DNA of 64,000 bases from Alphaproteobacteria bacterium. Lineage in GTDB: Bacteria; Pseudomonadota; Alphaproteobacteria; JAAXGF01. Position 1 is the stretch's first letter, and each line of letters starts with the position of its first letter. Made by a program: the position numbers and the translations under genes. The notes beneath the pieces were generated by a model. The model searched no databases. It saw only the letters and a list, made by a program, of their open reading frames with translations, and had not been told where the DNA came from. This document shows, piece after piece, positions 44,326-57,277 of the stretch. The stretch lies in NCBI GenBank assembly GCA_963555825.3, contig CAUVXB020000001.1, positions 448,001-512,000 on the forward strand. Reading direction: 5' to 3'.

Positions 44326-44507
44326 CGCTGTCTGGATGTGCGCCCCCGTATATCAGCGCATCATGCCTGCGTTGCGCGCGACAGCAGATCTTGGCGCGCG
44401 GTCATCGGCACAGCCGCTTTTACCCTACGCGGACATCGGCAACATCGCGCACTCCGTGTGCTAACGTACCCGCCACCGCTCTCATCCACCGGGAATGCAG
44501 CTAAGCA

Positions 44508-45397: not shown

Positions 45398-48300
45398 GAG
45401 CTATAACCGAATCTTGACGGGGCGGTAAAAAGTCGATTCCTCATGAGAGTCGGCTGGATTATAATTGTGCATGTTTACTTTACGCGACCGACGGACTGGG
45501 GAATTGTTTGATCGCTGGTCCGATTTCGGGGACAAACGTCGGCGCCTGATGGAGCAATCCTGGGCCGGGGTTTTTCGGAACCATCTGCTTGTCGAACTTC
45601 CGGTTGACGATCTTTGCCGTCACCTTGATGAACGCATGGGCCGACCATCGAAGGATCTACACGTTGTCATCGGGGTCTTGCTTTTGCAGCAGCTGCACGA
45701 TCTGAGCGATGCAGAGACCGTCGAGGCCCTGGCCTTCAATATGGCGTGGCACTATGCCTTGGACGTGCGCAGCGAAGCGGACAGCTATTTCTGTGAGAAA
45801 ACCCTGCGCAACTATCGCCGTCTGTTTATCGAACAAGGTCTCGATGAATTGCTGTTCCGGTGTTTGACGGATCGGCTGGTGCAGGGGTTCTCTGTCGATA
45901 CCAGCCACCAACGCATGGATTCGACGGCCCTTCGTTCGGCAATGCGGGCGCTGACACGACTTGGTATCGTTGTTGAGAGCATCTCGAAGTTTGCCCGTGA
46001 GCTTGAGCGATATCATCCCGGTCTGCACGAGCAGATCAGCAAGGAGGTGATCCGCCGCTATGTCGATCGCGAGGGTAATGGCGCGTTCGCGAATACGGCG
46101 CCGAGTGTTTCAAAACGGCGCCTCGGCGAAGCGGGTCAGTATCTCCTAGCCCTGGTGCTGCAATTCCGTGACACGGCGGCGGCAAAGCTTTCCAGTTTTG
46201 CGATCCTGGAGAGGGTTCTGCGCGATCAGTTCGAGATCGTTGATGATGAGTATGGCGATCGTGACGCAACGCGCGCCGCGATTCGAGATCCAAAGGATGT
46301 GCCGTGCGATACCGTCGGCAATCCGGCCGACCCGGACGCGAGCTACAACGCGCACAAGGGTCAAGGATACATGGCGCAGATCGTCGAAACCTATTGTGAA
46401 GATGTCAGTAACGAGGCGGTTGCCGCGACACCGGACCTCATCACCCACGTGGAGGTCCACAAGATGACGGTGCATGACGGCCATCGCTTAGCCGATGCGC
46501 TGGATGATCTGAGCGAGCGCGCGCTGACGCCGGCGGTGATGCTGGGTGATTCACATTACGGTTCCAGTGACAACATGGCTCTGACGCGCGAACAGAACAT
46601 CAATCTCGTGGCGCCCGCACGACCGCCGAAAGGCGCCGTCTCGGGACGGTTGACGTTGGAGGATTTCACTCTCAACGAAGAAGGCTTGGTCTTGCGCTGT
46701 CCCAATAACGTCGAACCGGTTTCAGCCTCGCTCGCCAAAGCCAAGCTGCAGGCCCGTTTCGACCTCTCCATCTGCCAAAAATGTCCCGATATACTGCGAT
46801 GTCCCGTGCAGGCGGCCAAGCGTGACGGCCAATTTTCCCGCTTTCAATATACCCCGGCCAGGGCTGCCAACCAAAAGCGCCGGCTTTATGAACAAAGCGA
46901 TGCCTTCCGCAACGTCTACAGATGGCGGGCCGGCATAGAAGCGACCATGTCGCGATTAAAGTACCAGATGAACCTGGCTCACCTACGCATTCGCGGCATG
47001 CCGGCCATGCGCTACGTGGTCAATCTGCGTGCCCTCGGCCTCAATATCCGACGCTGCGCGGCAATCGCACCATAAAAAACGAAGCCAAGGAGAAGCCAAG
47101 GGTAGGTAATATCAGGTTTTATCCACCAGCAACGCGGAGACAGGCAAATATTCTTCACCGAACCGCAAAGACCTGTACAAGCACGCCATCGGCCAACAAC
47201 TTTTTATCGCCCCGTCGAATCTTGTGTACGGCGTTGAAATGAAGGCGGCGTATCCTGGTGATTGTTGATGTCACCACTTGAGCTAAGCCAAGGAAGGATA
47301 CGCCATGAAAGAGAATACCGTTGTTGCTTTTCAAAACCCATCTGATTTTCAGAAAGATCCGTTGACGGAAGTCCTACAAGCTGGAGCTCGCGAGTTGTTG
47401 GCCCAAGCCGTTGAGGCCGAGGTCTCCGTGTTTTTGGGTAGCCATGCGGCGCTTGTTGACGCCGCCGGCCGCCGCCGGGTTGTCCGCAATGGATATCTGC
47501 CGGAACGCTTCATCCAGACCGGGATCGGCCCGGTGAGCGTGCGCCAACCCCGTGTGCGGGACCGGGGGGACGGCGCCATCCGCTTCACGTCGGCGATCCT
47601 GCCGCGCTATCTGCGCCGCGCCAAGAGCCTGGAAGACCTTTTGCCATGGCTGTATCTGAAGGGCATTTCCACCGGCGACTTCGGGGAAGCCTTGGCGGCG
47701 CTCCTGGGGAGCTCCGCGCCGGGGCTTTCGGCCTCCACGATCACCCGGCTGAAAGAGGTCTGGGGGGTTGAGGCGGAGCGCTGGCAACGGCGCGACCTCA
47801 CGGCCAAGCGCTACGTCTATTTCTGGGTGGACGGCATCTATTTCAGCGCCCGCATGGAGGAAGAGAAGCAGTGCATCCTGGTGATCGTCGGGGCCACGGA
47901 CAAGGGACAGAAGGAACTGATCGCCATCGCCGACGGCTATCGCGAAAGTGAGCAGTCCTGGCTCGAAGTTCTGCTCGATCTCAAGCGGCGCGGCCTTGAA
48001 ATGGGTCCGCAACTGGCGCTCGGCGACGGCGCGCTCGGCTTCTGGAAGGCGCTCCGCCAAGTCTACCCAGGCGCCCGCGAGCAACGCTGCTGGGTTCACA
48101 AGACGGGCAACGTCTTGAACAAGCTGCCCAAGGGTCTGCAAAAGAAAGCCAAGGGGCGCCTGCAAGACATCTGGATGGCCGAAACCAGGAAGGATGCCGA
48201 GAGCGCCTTCGACTTCTTCCTGGAAGCCTACGGGCCGAAGTACGACAAGGCCGCGGCCTGCCTGGCCAAGGACCGCGACGTCCTGCTGACGTTCTACGAC

Positions 48301-48570
48301 TTCCCCGCCGAGCACTGGAAGCATGTACGCACGACCAACCCCATCGAGAGCACGTTCGCCACGGTTCGTCTGCGCACCTACCGGACCAAGGGCTGCCTGT
48401 CGCGCAAGACGGCGATGGCCATGGTCTTCAAACTATGCCAGTGCGCTCAGAGAAAATGGAGAAAACTCGATGGATCGAACCATCTCGCCGAGATCATTCG
48501 CGGCGTCAAATTCGTAGATGGAGAACGCCAGGATCGCGCCGCCGCATGATCAGCCCATACACAACTTTTG
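45398..48570 (+). mobile_element. IS256 family element 2 (tnp 47305-48549), both TIRs interrupted by IS1182-like copies
   Basis: Restored left end gagctataaccgaatcttgtgtacgg..aaggcggcgtatcctgg resembles the end of the IS256 at 14.5-15.9 kb; WVDG, QRCWVH, RTTNPIES. Confidence 0.9.
45416..47216 (+). mobile_element. IS1182/IS5-like element copy 1 (tnp 45465-47075)
   Basis: TIR GACGGGGCGGTAAAAAGT / ACTTTTTATCGCCCCGTC; DR (c)gaatctt(g); GRPS..LLQ..LSD N-domain, DPDASY, DSHYG, YRWRAGIEAT. Confidence 0.88.
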
Positions 48571-50100
48571 ACGGGGCGGTAAAAAGTTGTTGGCCGATGG
48601 CGTGCTTGTACAGGTCTTTGCGGTTCGGTGAAGAATATTTGCCTGTCTCCGCGTTGCTGGTGGATAAAACCTGATATTACCTACCCTTGGCTTCTCCTTG
48701 GCTTCGTTTTTTATGGTGCGATTGCCGCGCAGCGTCGGATATTGAGGCCGAGGGCACGCAGATTGACCACGTAGCGCATGGCCGGCATGCCGCGAATGCG
48801 TAGGTGAGCCAGGTTCATCTGGTACTTTAATCGCGACATGGTCGCTTCTATGCCGGCCCGCCATCTGTAGACGTTGCGGAAGGCATCGCTTTGTTCATAA
48901 AGCCGGCGCTTTTGGTTGGCAGCCCTGGCCGGGGTATATTGAAAGCGGGAAAATTGGCCGTCACGCTTGGCCGCCTGCACGGGACATCGCAGTATATCGG
49001 GACATTTTTGGCAGATGGAGAGGTCGAAACGGGCCTGCAGCTTGGCTTTGGCGAGCGAGGCTGAAACCGGTTCGACGTTATTGGGACAGCGCAAGACCAA
49101 GCCTTCTTCGTTGAGAGTGAAATCCTCCAACGTCAACCGTCCCGAGACGGCGCCTTTCGGCGGTCGTGCGGGCGCCACGAGATTGATGTTCTGTTCGCGC
49201 GTCAGAGCCATGTTGTCACTGGAACCGTAATGTGAATCACCCAGCATCACCGCCGGCGTCAGCGCGCGCTCGCTCAGATCATCCAGCGCATCGGCTAAGC
49301 GATGGCCGTCATGCACCGTCATCTTGTGGACCTCCACGTGGGTGATGAGGTCCGGTGTCGCGGCAACCGCCTCGTTACTGACATCTTCACAATAGGTTTC
49401 GACGATCTGCGCCATGTATCCTTGACCCTTGTGCGCGTTGTAGCTCGCGTCCGGGTCGGCCGGATTGCCGACGGTATCGCACGGCACATCCTTTGGATCT
49501 CGAATCGCGGCGCGCGTTGCGTCACGATCGCCATACTCATCATCAACGATCTCGAACTGATCGCGCAGAACCCTCTCCAGGATCGCAAAACTGAAAAGCT
49601 TTGCCGCCGCCGTGTCACGGAATTGCAGCACCAGGGCTAGGAGATACTGACCCGCTTCGCCGAGGCGCCGTTTTGAAACACTCGGCGCCGTATTCGCGAA
49701 CGCGCCATTACCCTCGCGATCGACATAGCGGCGGATCACCTCCTTGCTGATCTGCTCGTGCAGACCGGGATGATATCGCTCAAGCTCACGGGCAAACTTC
49801 GAGATGCTCTCAACAACGATACCAAGTCGTGTCAGCGCCCGCATTGCCGAACGAAGGGCCGTCGAATCCATGCGTTGGTGGCTGGTATCGACAGAGAACC
49901 CCTGCACCAGCCGATCCGTCAAACACCGGAACAGCAATTCATCGAGACCTTGTTCGATAAACAGACGGCGATAGTTGCGCAGGGTTTTCTCACAGAAATA
50001 GCTGTCCGCTTCGCTGCGCACGTCCAAGGCATAGTGCCACGCCATATTGAAGGCCAGGGCCTCGACGGTCTCTGCATCGCTCAGATCGTGCAGCTGCTGC
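48570..50100 (-). mobile_element. IS1182/IS5-like element copy 2, inverted and 5'-truncated
   Basis: Near-identical reverse complement of ~45686-47216; cut by IS3-like copy 3. Confidence 0.9.
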
Positions 50101-51520
50101 TGAGTCGGACCCGATTTCCTTGGACACAGAATTGGCTTAATCGAAGTGTCCAAGGAGGACCGGAACATGACCGACAATTTTGAGAACAAAGTTGCTGTTG
50201 ATGGGCCTGTGGTAAACGAGGGCGAGCTTGGCTCGTCCACGTTTTCCCCGGGCCAGGTTTCGCCGGCAGGCCCTCTGGGACTTGGCCAGCGGTGGACGGT
50301 GACGCGCAAGCGTGAGGTTGCCCTGCGGCTTTTGCGTGGCGAGCCGGTGGAACTTTTGTCGCGGCAGTTGGGCGTGGAGATTTTCCGGCTCGAGCAGTGG
50401 CGTGAGAAGGCGATCGCCGGGATCGATGCCTCGCTCAAGGAACGCAAGGGCGATCCGGTGAAGGCGGAACTGGACATCGCCATGAAGCGGATCGGGGAGT
50501 TGATCATGCAGGTGGAACTGCTGGAGGCCAAGACGGAGACGTCCGGCCCTTTGGGGCGGCGGAGGTCGCGGCGATGAGTGCCGCCACCTCTCCCGGCACG
50601 GGTTTGGCCTACGGCCTCCAGCGGGTCTGTGCGGCCTGGGGTTTTGCCCGTTCCTCGTTCTACGCCATGAAATCCCGGCAGCAGGCCACCGCTGAGCGCC
50701 CACCAGCAAAGCGCCGGGGACCGAAGCCCTCGATCTCGGACGAGGCTCTGCTGGTGGCCATCGAGGCCGACCTGGAGGCATCCCCCTGGGAGGGCGAGGG
50801 ACACCGCAAGGTCTGGGCTCGGCTTCGGGTCTGTCGTGGCATCCGTGTTTCCCGCAAGCGGGGGCTCCGGGTGATGCGCGAGAACAACCTGCTCTCGCCC
50901 CATCGCTGCCGCCGCCGTGGCGGAAATCCCCATGTCGGTGAGATCATCACCCATGCCCCCAACCTCATGTGGGGCACGGACGGCGTTCGGGTGTTCACGG
51001 TGGACGACGGCTGGGGCTGGATATTCACCGCCATCGAGCATTGGAACGCCGAGTGCGTCGGCTGGCATGTGTGCAAGCGAGGCGACCGCTTCGCCGCCCT
51101 TCAGCCGATCTCCATGGGGCTTGCGAGGCTGTATGCCTCGACCTCCGCCGGTGCGGCGCGGGGGCTGGCCTTGCGGATGGATCACGGCTCCCAGTATCTG
51201 TCGGACCACTTCACCAACCAGATCAAGTTCTGGGGCATCCAGCCGTCCTACGCCTTCGTCGAACAGCCCCAGACCAACGGCGTCGCCGAGAGGTTCAATC
51301 GCACGCTCAAGGAACAGATCATCCATGGCCGCATCTACCGCAACATCGCGGAGCTGCGGAACGCCGTCCGCGGGTTCGTCGAACAGTACAATGCCCAGTG
51401 GATCGTGGAGAAGAACGGCTACCTGAGCCCCGCTCAAGCTCGTCAGGCGTGGCACACCGCGATGTCACTCAGGCCCGCCGCATGAGACAAACTTGTGTCC
51501 AAGGAACCGGGTGCGATACA
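50101..51520 (+). mobile_element. IS3-like element copy 3, no matching DR (adjacent deletion or rearrangement)
   Basis: Same ends and proteins as copies 1 and 2; flanks unrelated. Confidence 0.95.
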
Positions 51521-51523
51521 ATT

Positions 51524-51826
51524 GTCTGCTCAGCCCTAGAATCCAGACGTTGGCGACTCAAGCACACGGCGTCCGCTTTCGAGCAGAAAGCCGACATGGA
51601 ACGTCTTGTCCCGCGATTCAGTGTCTCTAAGGTCTGCTAACGAGCGGGAAGCGGACGTTGCCGCTCAGCCTCACAAGCAGACCTCAAGCGATCTCGTCGC
51701 CGACGTCCGCTTCGGAGCGGTAAGCAGACGTAAATCGCGCACCTTCCGAAATTGGCGGCAGGTACGTCTGCTTCCGAGCAGAAAGCGGACCTCGCGGCGT
51801 GGGCCGCCTAATGTCTGCAAATAGCC
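51524..51826. repeat. Array of seven GTCYGC-N12/13-GCRGAC palindromes (the seventh completed at 53511-53527)
   Basis: Units at 51524, 51571, 51632, 51659, 51705, 51766, 51813; spacers 22, 36, 2, 22, 36, 22 bp. Confidence 0.8.
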
Positions 51827-53510
51827 CAGACTGTGTAAGAACGTTTGCTGCGTGATCTGTACGGCGCGTCTTTGGCTTCGATGATCCGTCGCGGCGGGTA
51901 TTCCGGGATTAAGGATTTTCGCCACTCGTGCGGACCTGTCGGCCGGCTGGCGCCGGTGTGAGCTGCGATTTGGCCGGATATGGGCGCAATTTGCGGCGCA
52001 GAGAGGCCTATGCGGTCCTCATCGCCGCGATCAGCGGGTCGATGCCCGTGATGTTCATGACGCGCTTGAGATTGTAGGCCAGCACGTGCAGGGCCATCTC
52101 GGTCCTCACCCGTTTCAGCGTCTTCGTCTGGAAATGCGTCGCGCCCATCCAGGACTTGATGGTGCCGAAGGGATGCTCGGCCGTCTCGCGCCGCCGACGC
52201 ATCGCCTCCGGGTGCTCGTCGAGCCGCCTCTCGACGGCCTCGAGAACATGCTCGTGCTGCCAGCGGGTGATGCGGCGCTGCTTGGCCGTGGTGCAGCGAT
52301 GCTTGATGGCGCATCCCTGACAGGCGTTGGTCCAGTAGCGCCGCATGCTCAGCCCCCTCTCCTGGCTGGTGAAGCGGTAGACCAAACGCTCGCCGGCCGG
52401 GCAGCGATAGACATCGTCGGCGGCCAGATAGACGAAGTCCTGTTTGCCGAAGCGGCCCTTGGCCTTGGCTCCAGAGGTCAGCGGCTTAGGCAATGTGACG
52501 GTGATGCCGGCCTCATCGCAGGCCAGAATCTCCTTGCCGTTGTAGTAGCCGCGATCGGCAACGACATCCAACTCGTCGGTCTCCAGAGCCGCCTTGGTCC
52601 GCTTCGCCATGGCTGAGAGCTGGGCGCGGTCGGTGCCCTGATTGGTCACCTCGTGGGCGACGATCAGGTGGTGCTTGGTGTCGACGGCGGCCTGAACGTT
52701 GTAGCCGACCACGCCGGAACCCCGGCCGCTCGTCGCCATCGAGCGGGCATCGGGATCGCTCAGAGAGATCTGCTGGTCCGGGCTCGCACGCCGCTCGACT
52801 TCAAGCGCCTTCAGGCGCCGCATCTCCTGCTTGAGGATCGCGATCTTGTCGGCCAGACGAGTCGTCTTGGTCGTGCGCGCCAGCGACGGCTCTTGCCGGT
52901 CGGCGCTGTCCAACTGGTCCAGATAGCGCGCAACGCTCTCCTCGATCTGCGCCACCCGCCGCGCCATCTTGGCCCGCGTGAAGTTCCTGTCCCGGCTGTT
53001 GACCGCCTTGAACTTCGAGCCATCGATCGCCACGCTCGCCTCGGCGAACAGCCCGAGTTGCCGGCACAGCGCGACGAACCGGGCGCAGACCTTGCGGATC
53101 GCACGGCCGTTGTCCTTGCGGAAGTCGGCGATCGTCTTGTGATCCGGCGCCAGCCGGCCGACCAGCCACATCACTTCCACATTGCGCCCGGCCTCCCTCT
53201 CGAGCCGACGGCTCGACTGAACCCGGTTGAGATAGCCGTAGATGTAGAGCTTCAACAAATCGCAAGGATGATAGGCCGGCCTGCCGGTCGCCAGCGGCTC
53301 GACCCGGTCGAACCCGAGGCCGCCAAGATCGAGCTCATCGACGAAGACGTCGATCGCCCGAACCGGGTTGTCGTCGCCGATCCAGTCTTCCAGGCGCTCC
53401 GGAAACAACGTGCCCTGGCTGCGATCGACACCCTCGACAAAACGCTTCATCAGACCCTCCCGCCAAAGCACGAGAGAATCATAACACCATCGACGTTTTT
53501 ACACAGGCTG
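51827..53510 (-). mobile_element. IS1182 family element (tnp 52008-53450)
   Basis: TIR CAGACTGTGTAAGAACG / CGTTTTTACACAGGCTG, 4-bp DR agcc, GRPAYHP, IDGSK, DPDARSM, ADRGY, EHPFGTIK. Confidence 0.95.
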
Positions 53511-53597
53511 AGCCAAGAGCAGACATTCCGCCCCTCTCGAAGCACATGGATTTTCGACCTCCCAGAAGATAGCCTACCGCTATAGGGGGGACTGCTA

Positions 53598-53738
53598 ATG
53601 GAACGCCGTTTGGCCGCGATCCTGTCCGCCGACGTGGTCGGGTATAGCCGGCTCATGGAGGCCGACGAGGAAGCAACGATCCGTGTACTGAGCGAATGCC
53701 GCCAGGTCATCGACGAGCTAGTCGCAAACCATCATGGC
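53598..53738 (+). pseudogene. Class III adenylate/guanylate cyclase N-terminal fragment, truncated by IS21
   Basis: MERRLAAILSADVVGYSRLMEADEEAT..HHG stops at the IS21 end. Confidence 0.85.
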
Positions 53739-54147
53739 TGAGAACGGCAGAGCAATAATCCCTCACTGAAGCGGCCGGTCGATCCGGCTGCGGCGGACCA
53801 AAATGGGACCGCGTATAGCCTTCTGTCAGGGTTGCTCTGACTGGAAGGCGGGGGGGATGTATCGGGTGGAGTTGTACGCACGGGTTCGGTGGGCGTGTCA
53901 TGTCGAGGGGATGAGCACCCGCGAGGCCTCGCGGGTGTTTGGTGTAGACCGCAAGACGGTCCGTAAGATGCTGTCGTTCTCGGTGCCGCCAGGGTATCGC
54001 CGAAGCGCGCCGCCGAGGCGGCCAAAGCTGGGTCCGTTCACGGGAATCATCGATCGGATCTTGGAAGACGATCGGACCAGCCACCGCAAGCAACGGCACA
54101 CTGCGAAGCGCATCTTCGACCGCCTCCGGGACGAGTACGGTTTCACG
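53739..54147 (+). mobile_element. IS21 left-end remnant (5' of istA)
   Basis: Near-identical to the reverse complement of 57833-58241. Confidence 0.9.
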
Positions 54148-55753
54148 TGTCAATGGCGGAGCAAAAAGGGACCACCTCGGCGGTGTAAGAAGGGACCGCT
54201 TGGCGGCTGCGGGCTTGTCCCCGTAGTCCACGGGAGGGCCCCGCGCGCGACGCGGCGTGCCCTCAACAGGCTGACGCGGCGGCGCGCGCGGGAGGGACCT
54301 GTGGGCCCACGGGGTCAAGCGTGGGCTGGGTGGTCGGTTCAGTTAGCAGTCGGGGTTTGACGCCTGCGGCTCTGGTTGAGCCTGTAGCTGTCACCGTTCA
54401 TCTCGAGGATGTTGACGTGGTGGGTGAGGCGATCGAGGAGCGCGCCGGTGAGGCGCTCGGAGCCGAACACCTCGGTCCATTCGTCGAAGGGCAGATTGGT
54501 GGTGACCAGGGTCGAGCCCCGCTCGTAGCGTTGGCTGAACACCTCGAACAACAGCTCGGCGCCGGTCTTCGACAGCGGCACGAAGCCGAGTTCGTCGACG
54601 ATCAGAAGCTTGTAGGTGGCGAGCTTCTTCTGGAACCTCAGCAGCTGCTTGTCATCGCGGGCCTCGATGAGTTCGTGGACCAGCGCGGCGGCGGTGATGA
54701 AGCCGACCGAGAGGCCCTTCTGGCAGGCCGCCAGGCCGAGACCGAGGGCGATGTGGGTCTTGCCGGTCCCACTGTTGCCGAGCGCGATGAGGTTCTCGCG
54801 GCGCTCGATGTACTCGCAGCGGGCCAGCTCCAGGACCAGCGCCTTGTTGAGCGAGGGGATGACCTTGAAGTCGAAGCTGTCGAGGCTCTTGACCACGGGG
54901 AAGCGCGCCGCCTTGATGCGCCGCTCGACCATGCGGCGCTCGCGGTCGATCAGCTCGAGCTCGGCGAGTCTCAACAGGTAGCGGACGTGATCGACGCCTT
55001 CCGAGGCGCACTGCCGGGCGATCTTGTCGTACTCGCGCAGGAAGGTCGGCAGCTTCAGCGTCTTGAGGTGGTGGGCGAGCAGCACTTGCGGTGTGTCGGT
55101 CATGCGCCGAGCCCCGACAGCAGGCTCATGTACGACTTGGCGGACGTCATCGCGACCCGGGCGCGCGGCAGATACGGATAGACGTCGAGGTTGAGCCTGG
55201 GCGGCCGCCGCTCGATGCGGCACAGTACCAGGTGCTTCACCGCATCAAAGCCGATTGCGCCGAGCCGCAGGGCGTCGCCGACCGCACCCTCGACCTCCTC
55301 GAGCCGGAAGGTCTCCAGTAGACGGAGCACCTGGACGTACTCGCGCTTGCCTGCCTTGCCCATACGAGCTTCGAGGAGCCGCCGCAGAGTGATGAAGGCC
55401 TCGGGCAGGTCCCAGCCCGCCAATGGCGCGGCCTGGTCGAGGGCGCCGATCTTCTGCTCGATCAAGGGCAGGTAATGCAGCGGGTCGAAGATCAGGTCCT
55501 CGCTGTCGTAGGACCGGCGGTGCCGGGCGATCACCTCGGCCCCGCAGCTGATCACCACCTCATCGACGTAGCCCCGGATGAGCACCTCACGGTGGCCGTA
55601 GGCCACGGGCACGGAATAGTCGTTGCTGCGGTAACGCACCAGCGACAGCGAACTCGCCCGTCCAGGGCGCTTATCGCAGGCATCATAGGGAGCAGGCGGC
55701 AATGGCAAGAGAACTTGACGATCCCGCTCGAGACGCTCGCCGATGGTCTCCTT

Positions 55754-57277
55754 ATATGAGGCGTTTGCTGTCAAGGTGGATTTAATCTACGCCACATGAT
55801 CGTCTCTTCCATTGGTTATGGCTTTGTATCCAGGGCGGGTCTTGCGATGAGTTCCGTGTTTCGTGCGAGTGATCGCATCACCTTATATCCGGCAGCTCCG
55901 ATCCGGCTTGCCACAATGCTGTATACATGGACCATCACAGGACGGGGATGGGACTAATCTTGTGGACGGCACCTTCGCCAAGGAGACATGCAGTCACACA
56001 TCCAACCTGCCAACAAGCGTTCCCATCGGGGAATGAAGCCCGTTAGAACGCTGAGCTGATCCGCAGTCCTATTTGACGACAGCACCCACCGGGATCAGCC
56101 CGGTTTCCAGATACCGCCAAAGCGCGATCGCCAGTTTGCGGGCCAGGGCGACGATCATGACGCGCCTGATGCGCCCCTTCTGACCTTGGGTGCGGTCATG
56201 GAACCACTGGGTCAGAGCGCTATCGGGTTGATGGCGGACCCAAAGCCATGCGGCTTCGATCATGGCAACCCGTGCCAGCCGATTGCCCGCCTTGGAGATG
56301 CCTTGGCTGCGGCGCCCGTCGCCGCTGTCATAGGCACTGGGCGTGATCCCGATATAGCTTGCCACCTGTCGGCGATTGGCGAACTGGCGATAATAGACTT
56401 CCCGTGCGAGCGTCGTGGATAAGGCCGGGCCGAGGCCCTTTAAGCGCAGCAGCTGGTGACGCTTGCTTTCCGTGGCCACACACGGTGTCGGCGCTTGATC
56501 ACGCTCACGCTCGACCTCGACGATCTGCGCTTGGACCTGGGCCAGTCTCGCGATCTCCCGCGCGATCTCGCGGCCGAGACGGTCCGGCAGGGGTCGGCCG
56601 TCTCCGGTGACCAGCGCCGCCGGTGTCAAGGTCTTGTAGCGCGCCTTGACATTGATGCCGCGAATGCCCTGACCGAATAGCAGACCCTTGATCCGGTTGA
56701 TGTGGGCGGTTCGCTCGCGGACCAATCGGTCACGTTCCCGATGAGAGCGGCGAAGGTCCTCCTCCGCGACGCTCGGAATCACCACCATGGAGCAGACATG
56801 ACGCTCGCCGCGGCACCAGGCGATCAGCGTATGAAGAATATTCTCGACATCGATGCGGTCGGTCTTCACCCGCCGCGCCCGGCGGTTGACCCGCAAGCTG
56901 GCCGGCTCCATGACCAGACACTCGATGCCGCGCTGCTCGAGGAACCGCGCCAACCAGAAGCCGTCGTAGCCGGCCTCGTAGCACAGCGTTATCGTCGGCG
57001 TTCGACCCGTCACCTTGACCACCCGGTCCCGCGCCGCGTCCAGCTTGGCCATCAGTCCTTCAGCGTCGCCGCCCTTGATCGGATGCAAGCTCGGATTGCC
57101 CCGCCCCGGAGCCTGGATCGCCAAAAGCCAGCTGTTCTTGCTCAACTCCAGTGCCGCATAAATAGCGTGTTCATTGGAGGTCGATACCGGAAACTGTGCC
57201 ATCGTGTCGCTCCTTCTGATCGAGGTTGAAATAAGCGAAGGAGCTTGAGGCTGCGTCCTTCAGCCTCATAGCATCTT
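55754..57277 (-). mobile_element. IS110 family, IS1111-type element (recombinase 56069-57202)
   Basis: ALELSK, CYEAG, KTDRID, SAYDSG..GISKAGN, ALARK; subterminal IR tatgaggc/gcctcata; core ctt at both ends; 315-bp downstream non-coding end. Confidence 0.93.
55850..56060 (-). ncRNA. Predicted bridge/seekRNA of the IS110 element
   Basis: Paired guide segments match the target junction (gtctc-ctt-gtgg) and the donor circle junction (agcat-ctt-atat); RNA ends approximate. Confidence 0.75.

Follow-up and report, generated by a model that had tools for sequence, protein, structure and literature searches.

A palindrome array interrupted by an IS1182-family element probably represents two copies of a REP/BIME-like mosaic repeat

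What kind of DNA is a row of short palindromes set at recurring distances, with spacers that differ from one another and an insertion sequence (IS) inside the last unit? We addressed this question for a locus in a 64,000-nucleotide stretch of an alphaproteobacterial genome (hereafter, the window). An initial annotation had described seven units with GTCYGC and GCRGAC arms, separated by spacers of conserved length but free sequence, and had proposed protein-bound recombination sites or a processed RNA array. Our analysis indicates that the locus very probably consists of two neighbouring copies, not identical to each other, of a REP/BIME-like mosaic repeat that is non-coding, dispersed through the genome and specific to the lineage, and that acts as an IS landing pad. 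The locus would then belong to a kind of bacterial DNA that is already known, the lineage-specific mosaic of palindromes, and would not be a new spacer-collecting array.

Layout of the locus

The seven units lie at 51524–51548, 51571–51595, 51632–51656, 51659–51682, 51705–51729, 51766–51790 and, split by the IS, 51813–51826 plus 53511–53524 of the window. The gaps between them are, in order, 22, 36, 2, 22, 36 and 22 nt. We distinguish two types of unit, P palindromes and H hairpins, in the following layout.

50101–51520, forward strand: rve-type (IS3-like) IS that adjoins the array and is not part of the repeat
51521–51551, forward strand: P-type palindrome (earlier unit 1, 51524–51548), consisting of ATTGTCTGC, a 13-nt loop with AGCC, and CCAGACGTT; opens copy 1
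51549–51570, forward strand: 22-nt P-to-H linker of copy 1; a 22-nt gap lies upstream of 29 H hairpins genome-wide
51571–51595, forward strand: H hairpin 1 of copy 1 (unit 2), with a nominal 10-bp stem and loop GAGCA
51596–51631, forward strand: 36-nt spacer of copy 1, with close homologues at C2:1374437, C2:1011336 and C1:337876
51632–51656, forward strand: H hairpin 2 of copy 1 (unit 3), loop GAGCG
51657–51682, forward strand: junction of copies 1 and 2 (unit 4), a 16-nt linker remnant followed by ACAA-GCAGAC, the P right half
51683–51704, forward strand: 22-nt linker of copy 2
51705–51729, forward strand: H hairpin 1 of copy 2 (unit 5)
51730–51765, forward strand: 36-nt spacer of copy 2; its subtype has an AT-rich centre, GAAATT
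51766–51790, forward strand: H hairpin 2 of copy 2 (unit 6)
51791–51809, forward strand: H-to-P linker, 22 nt when measured to GTCTGC at 51813
51810–51826, forward strand: left half of the terminal P palindrome (unit 7), AATGTCTGC-AAAT-AGCC, of which the final 4 nt are the target duplication
51827–53510, reverse strand: IS1182-family IS of 1684 bp, with a transposase gene from 53471 to 52008 (487 aa)
53511–53527, forward strand: right half of the terminal P palindrome, AGCC (duplicated)-AAGA-GCAGAC-ATT
53598–53741, forward strand: 47-codon gene start truncated by the next IS; the native downstream neighbour of the array

The coordinates and gaps of the seven-unit array stand as first described, but the strict motif fits only three of the seven units (units 3, 5 and 6); unit 2 deviates by GCCGAC and unit 1 by CCAGAC. 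Unit 4 had been taken for a palindrome with an AGCC loop, a reading that we abandon: its left arm is TGCCGC, and its ‘AGCC’ belongs to the linker remnant because the linker of the closest relative, at C2:1374437, has the same tcAGCCtc. Compared with that relative, the junction lacks about 20 nt, corresponding to the P left arm and loop. On a profile of 170 positions, copy 1 (nhmmer match, 51537–51669) stops at position 139 and copy 2 starts at position 4. The proposed period of about 134 bp holds for units 2 to 5, 3 to 6 and 1 to 4 (134 or 135 nt), but not for units 4 to 7 (154 nt).

The two copies are 62% identical to each other, whereas their best matches elsewhere in the genome reach 87% and 79%, and on these figures we rejected a recent local duplication as the source of the tandem pair. 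The pair would instead derive from rearrangement or deletion between two neighbouring elements. Tandem Repeats Finder returned nothing for 51300–52000 because the copies are too diverged. Folded as single-stranded DNA, the array as a whole gives −68.5 kcal/mol (z = −2.99), a value matched by 1 of 100 shuffles, but the local hairpins are not returned because arms from different units pair together, so we did not count this fold as evidence of structure. The 47-aa gene start at 53598–53738 has no Pfam match; it may be the beginning of a nucleotide cyclase. A repeated IS21-like element begins at about 53738.

A dispersed family of composite repeats

The full element, of about 215 bp, is a P palindrome, 22 nt, an H hairpin, 36 nt, a second H hairpin, 22 nt and a second P palindrome, with all four units in one direction. 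The P palindrome reads CCAATGTCYGC, a 12–13-nt loop and GCRGACATTGG, and the H hairpin reads GTCCGCTTNC-GAGCG-GNAAGCGGAC. Half modules (P-H or H-P) are also found alone, often right behind gene ends. A genome search with an nhmmer profile built from 23 doublets gave 79 matches at 65 loci, 26 with both H hairpins and 39 partial (20 left halves and 19 right halves); doublets never occur more than two together.

Simple pattern counts show a motif in excess of chance: GTCYGC-N13-GCRGAC occurs 38 times in the genome and its reversed control 7 times, and other loop lengths from 6 to 21 give 0–5 occurrences. The H pattern occurs 26 times, compared with 0 for its reversed control. Further palindrome types with the same arms are present in 13 and 9 copies.

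All 65 loci lie between open reading frames, with four marginal overlaps, according to a rough GC3-heuristic gene call that covers only 75% of the genome. By the same rough call, the gene ends that face the loci are 36 3′ ends and 17 5′ starts. The orientation of the element relative to the neighbouring gene is unbiased (16 same, 20 opposite). Over approximately 170 nt, no pair of elements is more than 75% identical (median, 53%; 253 pairs), and the family therefore gives no indication that it spread recently, as an active REP/REPIN or MITE family would.

Fixed spacing and homologous spacers

The conserved spacing noted in the window extends across the genome. Gaps beside 85 H hairpins are either 22 nt (29 upstream, 16 downstream) or 35–36 nt (19 upstream, 16 downstream), and no other value occurs more than once. 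Among hairpin pairs within 400 nt of each other, same-strand or mixed, 24 of 32 start 60–61 nt apart (61 nt in 21 cases and 60 nt in 3), with nothing else from 1 to 72 nt. The spacers themselves are 36 nt long in 30 of 32 cases and 35 nt in the other two.

The spacers had been said to differ from one another and to be free in sequence. They do differ inside the window, but homologues of each of them are present at other places in the genome, and a common consensus underlies them: pairs have a mean identity of 0.47, compared with 0.26 for random DNA, and best-neighbour identity is 0.73, compared with 0.42. The claim of free sequence therefore falls, and spacers that are diverged homologues identify a dispersed composite repeat and not a spacer-collecting array. 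The 22-nt linkers are homologous too (mean pair identity, 0.45 versus 0.26 for random DNA). Conservation is also seen in the loop GAGCG and in the AT-rich centre of the spacer.

Within a copy, H stems form on average 6.69 of 10 Watson–Crick pairs, compared with 7.03 ± 0.08 when arms are swapped between copies, and 1000 of 1000 shuffles reach the observed value. Stem position 6 is CG in 45 hairpins, CC in 21, GG in 15 and GC in none, and no compensatory changes were found in H hairpins genome-wide. As stems pair no better than swapped arms, there is no sign that hairpin formation itself is selected.

That the 22/36/22 spacing is kept in old copies suggests that the units are still read together, and the reader would be a DNA-binding protein or a mobilizing enzyme. 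One way to extend this idea is to regard the units as duplex binding sites of a host or mobile-element protein in a fixed nucleoprotein geometry, kept for a present function in chromosome organization, recombination or gene control. This reading overlaps with the preferred one and differs from it by claiming present function; we consider it unlikely. In its favour, the spacing is kept despite divergence, in that spacers only 47% alike are exactly 36 nt long in 30 of 32 cases and the hairpin gaps depart from 22 or 35–36 nt in single exceptions at most. Since no copies are more than 75% alike, selection on a recently active master copy would hardly explain this regularity. The half-sites also vary independently and uncompensated at position 6, which would be expected if a dimer read duplex DNA but not if a hairpin formed; the conserved loop and spacer centre and the unbiased orientation relative to genes are likewise consistent with protein-read sites.

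Against present function, we found neither a binding protein nor a recurrent non-transposase neighbour. The suggested look at gene families that co-occur with arrays brought none to light: 52 of the flanking proteins occur once, and the sole recurrences are GST and GFA proteins, two of each. Among 12 relatives from the same order, none yielded the H pattern (‘not found’ and not ‘absent’, because most of these genomes are fragmented MAGs and such assemblies often leave repeats out), so any function would be dispensable or lineage-specific. Moreover, the indel rate that the argument expects is an assumption. A more elaborate version, which we regard as decidedly doubtful, is that P-H-H-P forms a functional four-site scaffold in which a host architectural factor or a non-RAYT recombinase reads half-sites at a 47/61/47-bp geometry. 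Selection would have held 22/36/22 while the intervening sequence drifted to approximately 47% identity, and several IS families would have adapted to the exposed P loop, a safe landing site present in many copies. If so, this would be a REP-like system with its own new reader.

Insertion sequences in the P loops

The 1684-bp element in unit 7 belongs to the IS1182 family. Its transposase scores 452.7 bits against NF033551 (cut-off, 270) and matches Pfam DUF772, DDE_Tnp_1 and DDE_Tnp_1_6; the ends of the element, CAGACTGTGTAA... and ...TTACACAGGCTG, are 80% complementary, and AGCC is present on both sides (51823–51826 and 53511–53514). The same locus also exists without the IS: a metagenome contig from run X6 shows 0 differences over 51521–51822 and from there passes straight to 53511; the 1688 nt in between are absent, and 4 letters are ambiguous. 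The restored palindrome is thus found as DNA. Together with the family score and the AGCC on both sides, this empty site confirms the earlier proposal that an IS1182 element entered the loop of unit 7 and duplicated AGCC.

Across the genome, the IS1182-family element accounts for 31 BLAST rows and 21 copies with both ends. Identical 4-bp flanks surround 18 of these 21 copies (15 GGTC and one each of AGCC, GTTC and GGAC). A GTCYGC arm precedes 20 of 24 left ends. Of 28 right ends, 22 run into a GCRGAC arm and 21 into an H hairpin. Insertion is at the loop centre with a 4-bp stagger (GGTC, or AGCC in the window), always in one orientation. The same P loops are used by a second IS1182-family element, by MITE-like short derivatives of both and by IS110-family elements. 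The P loops are specific insertion sites. IS1182-family copies are 99.5–99.9% identical to one another, and the P-H-H-P copies (at most 75% identical) would predate the IS burst that produced them.

We suppose that the IS1182-family transposase would recognize the palindrome, arms and asymmetric loop together, possibly as an extruded hairpin of the kind proposed for IS1272. The available part of PMC5678879 reports that IS1272, also of the IS1182 family, targets stem-loops. The IS tips (CAGAC...GTCTG) appear to copy the palindrome arms, in which case each insertion would rebuild two half-palindromes.

Transposase-like genes make up 63 of 130 flanking open reading frames: 25 IS1182, 16 IS110, 7 of the rve type seen in the window, 6 other rve, 4 Mutator, 3 DDE_Tnp_1_4 and 2 DDE_3. 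The rve-type IS next to the array encodes an OrfB (50574–51485) with rve/rve_3 domains, which scores 150 bits against NF033516, under the cut-off of 160. It has 79 full copies in the genome with duplications of about 14 bp, and the flanks of the window copy do not match. We considered a preference of this IS for palindromes and rejected it, as the flanks of the 79 full copies are unrelated.

Other origins for the element

The element could also be a MITE, moved in trans by an IS transposase acting on terminal inverted repeats, but we judge this improbable. Its length of about 215 bp, intergenic position and multiple copies would suit a MITE, true MITE-like derivatives of IS1182-family elements do occupy P loops in this genome, and the outer P halves of intact MAG copies give the inverted ends GCCAATGTC...GACATTGGC. 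However, the end units are themselves palindromic, so that inverted ends arise automatically, and the IS1182-family element has only CAGAC in common with the palindrome arm. In addition, half modules are found alone, there are no recent copies, and no flanking duplication was seen by eye around seven intact MAG copies.

It is very improbable that the array is transcribed and processed to small RNAs, whether CRISPR-like, another repeat–spacer array or a structured regulatory RNA. The 25-nt repeat and 36-nt spacer resemble CRISPR dimensions, and a contig from the RNA library X14 spans 51521–51661 at a depth of 2.4, although an assembled contig does not show transcription. The repeats, however, are merely 64–79% alike, at most two doublets occur together, the spacers are homologous to one another, and no Cas1 was found in the 99.3%-complete genome, in line with the earlier remark that no cas gene lies nearby. 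A possible phage or plasmid origin of the spacers gained no support: 51521–51826 matched no record in the plasmid and phage collections. A search of Rfam gave 0 matches up to E = 10 in 51300–52000 and 0 up to E = 1 in three intact MAG copies, and a scan of 51400–51900 found no promoter-like or terminator-like site. With neither compensatory pairs in the stems nor an orientation bias relative to genes, the proposal of a processed RNA array finds no support.

That the doublets are passengers of the IS1182-family element, carried by read-through transposition to a downstream GTCTG as an alternative end, is hardly credible: the same P half and H hairpin do follow 21 of 28 intact IS right ends in one orientation, and the right tip GTCTG equals the P left arm, but intact elements occur without any IS in other genomes, the X6 empty site reflects an IS that moved alone, and the gap between the near-identical IS copies and the adjacent doublets (at most 75%) contradicts transduction.

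We found no enzyme in the genome that would mobilize the element. A link to RAYTs was tried and rejected: none of the three Y1_Tnp genes has GTCYGC palindromes within 900 nt (the one at C2:2727747 is flanked by a different palindrome), in agreement with the first impression that no RAYT gene lies near the array, and similar Y1_Tnp genes are present in 8 of the 12 relatives without the H pattern. REPs have a cognate RAYT flanked by two inverted REP copies, whereas here no RAYT is so flanked. In REPINs, which are mobilized by RAYTs, palindrome doublets with a kept spacer length form the family unit, as they do here. Inverted doublets and a cognate single-copy RAYT characterize REPINs, whereas these doublets are direct and a cognate RAYT was not found. 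With its exact spacing in old, diverged copies and no RAYT, the element could reasonably serve as bait in the search for a new repeat-binding protein in a genome swamped by ISs.

Comparison with known repeats and insertion sequences

The preferred reading, a dispersed REP/BIME-like mosaic, draws on several likenesses. The REP/BIME sequences of enterobacteria and pseudomonads, as presented in the available part of PMC2817692, are also short, imperfect, extragenic palindromes with many copies per genome that form regularly spaced mosaics, are specific to species or lineages and are IS hot spots. Unit sizes here (H, 25 nt; P, 24–31 nt) fall in the REP range of short imperfect palindromes (~20–40 nt), and a modest count of approximately 90 H hairpins over 65 loci compares with the ‘>100’ copies per genome that the same source gives for REPs. 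BIMEs are bound by IHF, gyrase or Pol I. Their units alternate in orientation, whereas these are direct: both H loops read GAGCG on one strand, and GGGTCA and TAGCCA, the loops of P, are homologous in direct orientation. The element also departs from REP/BIME in having two types of unit with common arms but different loops, and in its old, diverged copies.

Br-REP1 of Bradyrhizobium, in the available part of PMC5082802, is similarly an alphaproteobacterial intergenic multi-palindrome repeat, with three stem-loops. It resembles our element in standing alone or with flanking palindromes, in its location at gene 3′ ends and in the fast change of its abundance among relatives. The Br-REP consensus sequences quoted there differ from P and H, and that part of the paper describes neither a 22/36/22 geometry nor IS1182 targeting. 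These differences and the blank Rfam search uphold the initial annotation in assigning the units to no described family.

According to the available part of PMC1525189, REPs are targets for five IS families (IS3, IS110, IS4, IS256 and IS5). As in our genome, the REP-targeting elements treated there (IS1397, ISKpn1, IS621, ISPpu9/10, ISPa11 and ISRm19/22) split a palindrome that the joined flanks restore, are highly selective (all or nearly all copies) and include the IS110 family prominently. In contrast to those five families, the main user here is an IS1182-family element with a 4-bp loop-centre duplication and strict orientation. IS1272 of staphylococci, another IS1182-family member, likewise has an inverted-repeat or stem-loop target; in the available part of PMC5678879, it replaces the target stem-loop, makes no target duplication and accepts unrelated sequences. 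Here, by contrast, insertion leaves the arms in place, duplicates 4 bp of the loop and keeps to one sequence family, an outcome that equals ‘pathway c’ (loop duplicated) in the model figure of that paper. The genome thus provides an unusually clean natural data set (21 two-ended copies, one loop position, a 4-bp stagger, one orientation and an empty site) on IS1182-family target choice, which is otherwise described only for IS1272, with a different outcome.

Occurrence in other genomes and metagenomes

The search of metagenome collections consisted of one exact-pattern scan, and nine of its ten pattern matches collection-wide were intact elements whose GGGTCA and TAGCCA loops carry no insertion, located in MAGs of a few uncultured Alphaproteobacteria. 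The H pattern occurs 10 times in genome G031, 4 times in G032 and once each in G033 and G034, with pairs again 60–61 nt apart. A 241-nt query gave weak matches in only 2 of 30 other genomes; here too the remainder count as ‘not found’, since most are fragmented MAGs. None of the X19 contigs spans the array. The X6 and X14 contigs both begin to match at 51521 and carry different sequence ahead of it. Assembly breaks and rearrangements in these genomes are explained by such repeats and the ISs nested in them. Sponge metagenome is the label of some of the runs in which the stretch occurs.

Repeat units in the window

The locus consists of two copies of a new, lineage-specific mosaic repeat that resembles REP/BIME sequences and is a landing pad for insertion sequences of the IS1182 and IS110 families. 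Its value lies in the clean target rule that it provides for an IS1182-family transposase and in an unexplained conservation of spacing. The window spans C1:448001–512000 of the source genome, and the features to which we refer are as follows.

Features of the window (window positions)
47305–48546, IS256/Mutator gene
48568–50100, high-copy insertion sequence (IS)
50101–51520, rve-type (IS3-like) IS
51827–53510, IS1182-family IS, 1,684 bp, encoding a 487-amino-acid transposase
53598–53741, gene start of 47 codons, the native downstream neighbour of the array, truncated by the IS21-like element
from ~53738, IS21-like element, interrupted at 54147
54147–55753, second high-copy IS, inside the IS21-like element
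56072–57202, IS110 gene

Direct reading of 51000–54200 recovered the seven units of 24–25 nt described in the initial annotation, separated by the gaps that it gave (22, 36, 2, 22, 36 and 22 nt). Four of them, at 51571, 51632, 51705 and 51766, combine a nominal stem of 10 bp with a GAGCR loop (H hairpins), and a repeat search placed them in one family with start-to-start distances of 61, 73 and 61 nt and identities of 64–79%. The remaining three (units 1, 4 and 7) are of an ‘AGCC’ type: unit 1 has a single arm mismatch, unit 4 has TGCCGC as its left arm where GTCYGC is expected, and unit 7 is interrupted by the 1,684-bp element, with AGCC at either side. The strict motif proposed for the units is far above chance in the 6.04-Mb genome, in which GTCYGC-N13-GCRGAC occurs 38 times, compared with 0–5 times for each other loop length from 6 to 21 nt and 7 times for the reversed control, but only three of the seven window units match it.

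A dispersed mosaic repeat

In a fuzzy scan of the source genome with the H consensus, hairpin pairs start 61 nt (n = 21) or 60 nt (n = 3) apart, and no other distance is shorter than 73 nt; a group of four occurs only in the window. When 23 of these doublets (two H hairpins and their spacer) were aligned with their flanks, homology extended nearly gapless from ~40 nt before the first hairpin to ~45 nt past the second. The core profile built from this alignment gave 79 nhmmer matches at 65 loci, comprising 26 with both hairpins, 20 left halves (P–H, where P is a terminal palindrome) and 19 right halves (H–P). Scanning 185,579 species genomes for the exact pattern returned ten loci. Nine are intact elements in metagenome-assembled genome (MAG) records: one ‘Alphaproteobacteria bacterium’ MAG holds six, another holds one, and the other two lie on contigs placed in other bins. 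The tenth, on a Burkholderiaceae contig, is a chance match. Uninterrupted MAG copies reveal the complete unit, P1, 22 nt, H1, 36 nt, H2, 22 nt, P2, with all four parts in identical orientation.

Terminal palindromes, from intact MAG copies
P1: CCAATGTCYGC, loop YTNS-GGGTCA-RAAG, GCRGAC
P2: AATGTCNGC, loop NNNT-AGCCA-NNNN, GNAGACATT

The H pattern occurs 26 times in the source genome (reversed control, 0) and 10, 4, 1 and 1 times in the other genomes that carry the element (G031, G032, G033 and G034, respectively), again with 60–61-nt pairs; it was found in none of 12 other genomes of the same order, mostly fragmented MAGs.

The initial annotation was largely right in what it observed, but the locus, which it read as an array with free spacers, is instead two copies of this dispersed repeat. 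Copy 1 covers profile positions 7–139 (51537–51669) and copy 2 positions 4–169 (51668–51833). They are 62% identical to each other and match other loci more closely (copy 1, C2:1374429, 87%; copy 2, C2:2407582, 79%), so the locus juxtaposes two distinct members of the family. Unit 4, previously taken for an ordinary AGCC-type palindrome, is the junction of the copies, in which 16 nt of copy-1 linker meets the right half of a P palindrome, with ~20 nt missing; the tcAGCCtc of its linker part also occurs in the linker at C2:1374437.

Additional palindrome families with GTCYGC/GCRGAC arms and different loops occur genome-wide, including one with the loop GTTGCGCGCGACA (13 copies at ≤4 mismatches, one at 44362–44392 in the window), a GACCGC...GCCGAC type (9 copies) and a few others with C-rich or G-rich loops. 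The common arms may define a palindrome superfamily.

Conservation of spacing

The conserved spacing holds genome-wide. For 85 H hairpins, the nearest arm-like hexamer lies 22 nt away (29 upstream, 16 downstream) or 35–36 nt away (19 upstream, 16 downstream), with each other distance occurring at most once. The doublet spacer is 36 nt long in 30 of 32 cases and 35 nt in the other two. The sequences between are not free: mean pairwise identity is 0.47 for the spacers and 0.26 for 36-mers drawn at random from the genome, identity to the best neighbour is 0.73 as against 0.42, and a single cluster takes in 29 of the 32, with an AT-rich consensus centre (GAAATTC). The 22-nt linkers show the same pattern of fixed length and homologous sequence. 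Spacers appeared free in the window because only two diverged copies are in view.

Corrected divergence between spacers is roughly 0.9 substitutions per site. Assuming one indel per 10–20 substitutions, we estimate that each copy should have changed in length about once, but 30 of the 32 spacers are still 36 nt long. The genome has three Y1_Tnp genes, none with these palindromes close by (genes of this kind are present in 8 of the 12 relatives without the H pattern), and Cas1 was not found genome-wide, in keeping with the earlier statement that no cas or RAYT gene accompanies the array. The comparison with phage and plasmid databases suggested in the initial annotation returned no matching record, and no recent copies of the element were seen among 253 doublet pairs. 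Of the features seen, strict length conservation is thus the only one left unexplained by plain decay.

A target rule for the IS1182-family element

On NF033551, the IS1182-family model with a cut-off of 270 bits, the transposase reaches 452.7 bits. This result, with AGCC on both sides, bears out the reported insertion into the loop of unit 7. The filled and empty sites could also be compared, as had been proposed: a contig from a metagenome run (X6) matches 51521–51822 with zero differences and then resumes at 53511. Such an empty site shows directly that the IS arrived on its own.

The element gives 31 BLAST rows in the genome, most with >99.5% identity. Matching 4-bp flanks border 18 of the 21 copies with both ends (15 GGTC, 1 GTTC, 1 GGAC and 1 AGCC, the window copy); because the two flanks vary together, they are a true target duplication. 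A GTCYGC arm lies at −14 to −9 before 20 of 24 left ends, GCRGAC at +9 to +14 after 22 of 28 right ends, and an H hairpin ~22 nt further on after 21 of those 28, in constant relative orientation. The window copy is unusual only in its AGCC-type (P2) loop; the others sit in loops of the GGTC type (P1), and in the MAG copies these loops are still empty. As the IS tips (CAGAC...GTCTG) share their letters with the palindrome arms, insertion rebuilds two half-palindromes, and such mimicry may guide targeting.

The loops also receive other elements. In several P2 loops, TAGCC is followed by a second IS1182-family element (452 amino acids, 401 bits) or by short derivatives that have the ends GAGGSTGTTGAAGAAGT, and IS110-family elements (340 bits on NF033542) occupy P2 loops at C2:1014401 and C2:1018394 or lie within IS1182-like derivatives. 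Carriage of the doublets by the IS is rejected, as IS copies are near-identical whereas adjacent doublets are at most 75% identical (median, 53%); a burst of IS therefore struck pre-existing elements.

In six IS1182-family copies (for example, C1:399266–400951 and C2:1506830–1508511), the left tip has lost its first 3–5 nt and adjoins one of two other repeats (three copies each); a different mobile element seems to insert at this tip or to take its place. Derivatives of ~200 bp that carry the terminal repeats of either IS1182-family element occupy P loops (C2:2180340–2180583 and C1:343996–344325), with IS110-family elements nested inside or beside some. A ~133-nt segment from the non-coding end of a repeated element adjoining an IS110 gene stands in tandem ahead of a full copy at C1:169785–170598 and C2:2098027–2099393 (starts 134–138 nt apart, some ~296 nt at the C2 site), and may be a duplication of an IS110 end region.

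Structure and strand

No compensatory change was found in the stems of 89 distinct H hairpins. Watson–Crick pairs within a copy average 6.69 of 10, compared with 7.03 ± 0.08 when arms are shuffled among copies, and all 1,000 shuffles reached the observed pairing. Counts at stem position 4 are CG 33, TG 19, CA 16 and TA 3, and at position 6 are CG 45, CC 21, GG 15 and GC 0. As to the loops, 46 hairpins carry GAGCG and 12 carry GAGCA. Where the element lies at the 3′ end of a gene, it runs in the direction of that gene in 16 cases and against it in 20. The element matches no Rfam family, and no promoter-like or terminator-like sites were found at the locus. Together, these observations speak against a strand-specific structured RNA; the stem and strand data would suit either two half-sites that drift independently or half-sites that are recognised as duplex DNA.

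Genomic context

A rough, GC3-based gene call, which covers 75% of the genome, places all 65 loci between genes. The 130 flanking open reading frames comprise 63 that are transposase-like, 36 gene 3′ ends (≤400 nt), 17 gene 5′ starts and 14 further off. Transposase-like neighbours include IS1182 (25), IS110 (16; 12 distinct proteins), the window rve type (7), other rve or IS21-like (6), Mutator (4), DDE_Tnp_1_4 (3) and DDE_3 (2); the remaining neighbours are unrelated ordinary genes, with 52 singletons.

The genome is swamped by insertion sequences (79 full rve-type copies alone). At least seven form a nest around the locus (47305–57202), several with dozens of near-identical genome copies. 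Direct repeats of ~14 bp, long for the IS3 family, flank most rve-type copies; those of the window copy do not match, which suggests later rearrangement. The truncated gene start at 53598–53741 has no Pfam match and may represent the beginning of a nucleotide cyclase domain.

Comparison with known repeats

According to PMC2817692 and PMC1525189, REP/BIME sequences are short extragenic palindromes with regular mosaic spacing, lineage-specific and hot spots for IS. The P/H element shares all of these traits, but its units do not alternate in orientation and no RAYT gene lies between copies of its palindromes, two features that define the class. Composite repeats built from several palindromes (Br-REP1/2) are known in Alphaproteobacteria, and the consensus sequences quoted in PMC5082802 are unlike the P/H units. 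IS1272, an IS1182-family member, targets inverted repeats and replaces the stem-loop without duplication, according to PMC5678879, whereas the 1,684-bp IS keeps the palindrome arms and duplicates the loop centre. No description of the P/H element was found in the literature, although a literature search is blind to sequence motifs and is weak evidence of absence in print.

Elsewhere in the genome, a Y1_Tnp (RAYT-like) gene (L003, C2:2727488–2728078) has a different GC-rich palindrome on both sides (stem of up to 14 bp, core GGGCGGGTTTCAAACCCGCCC) and looks like a classical REP–RAYT pair that is unrelated to the P/H family.
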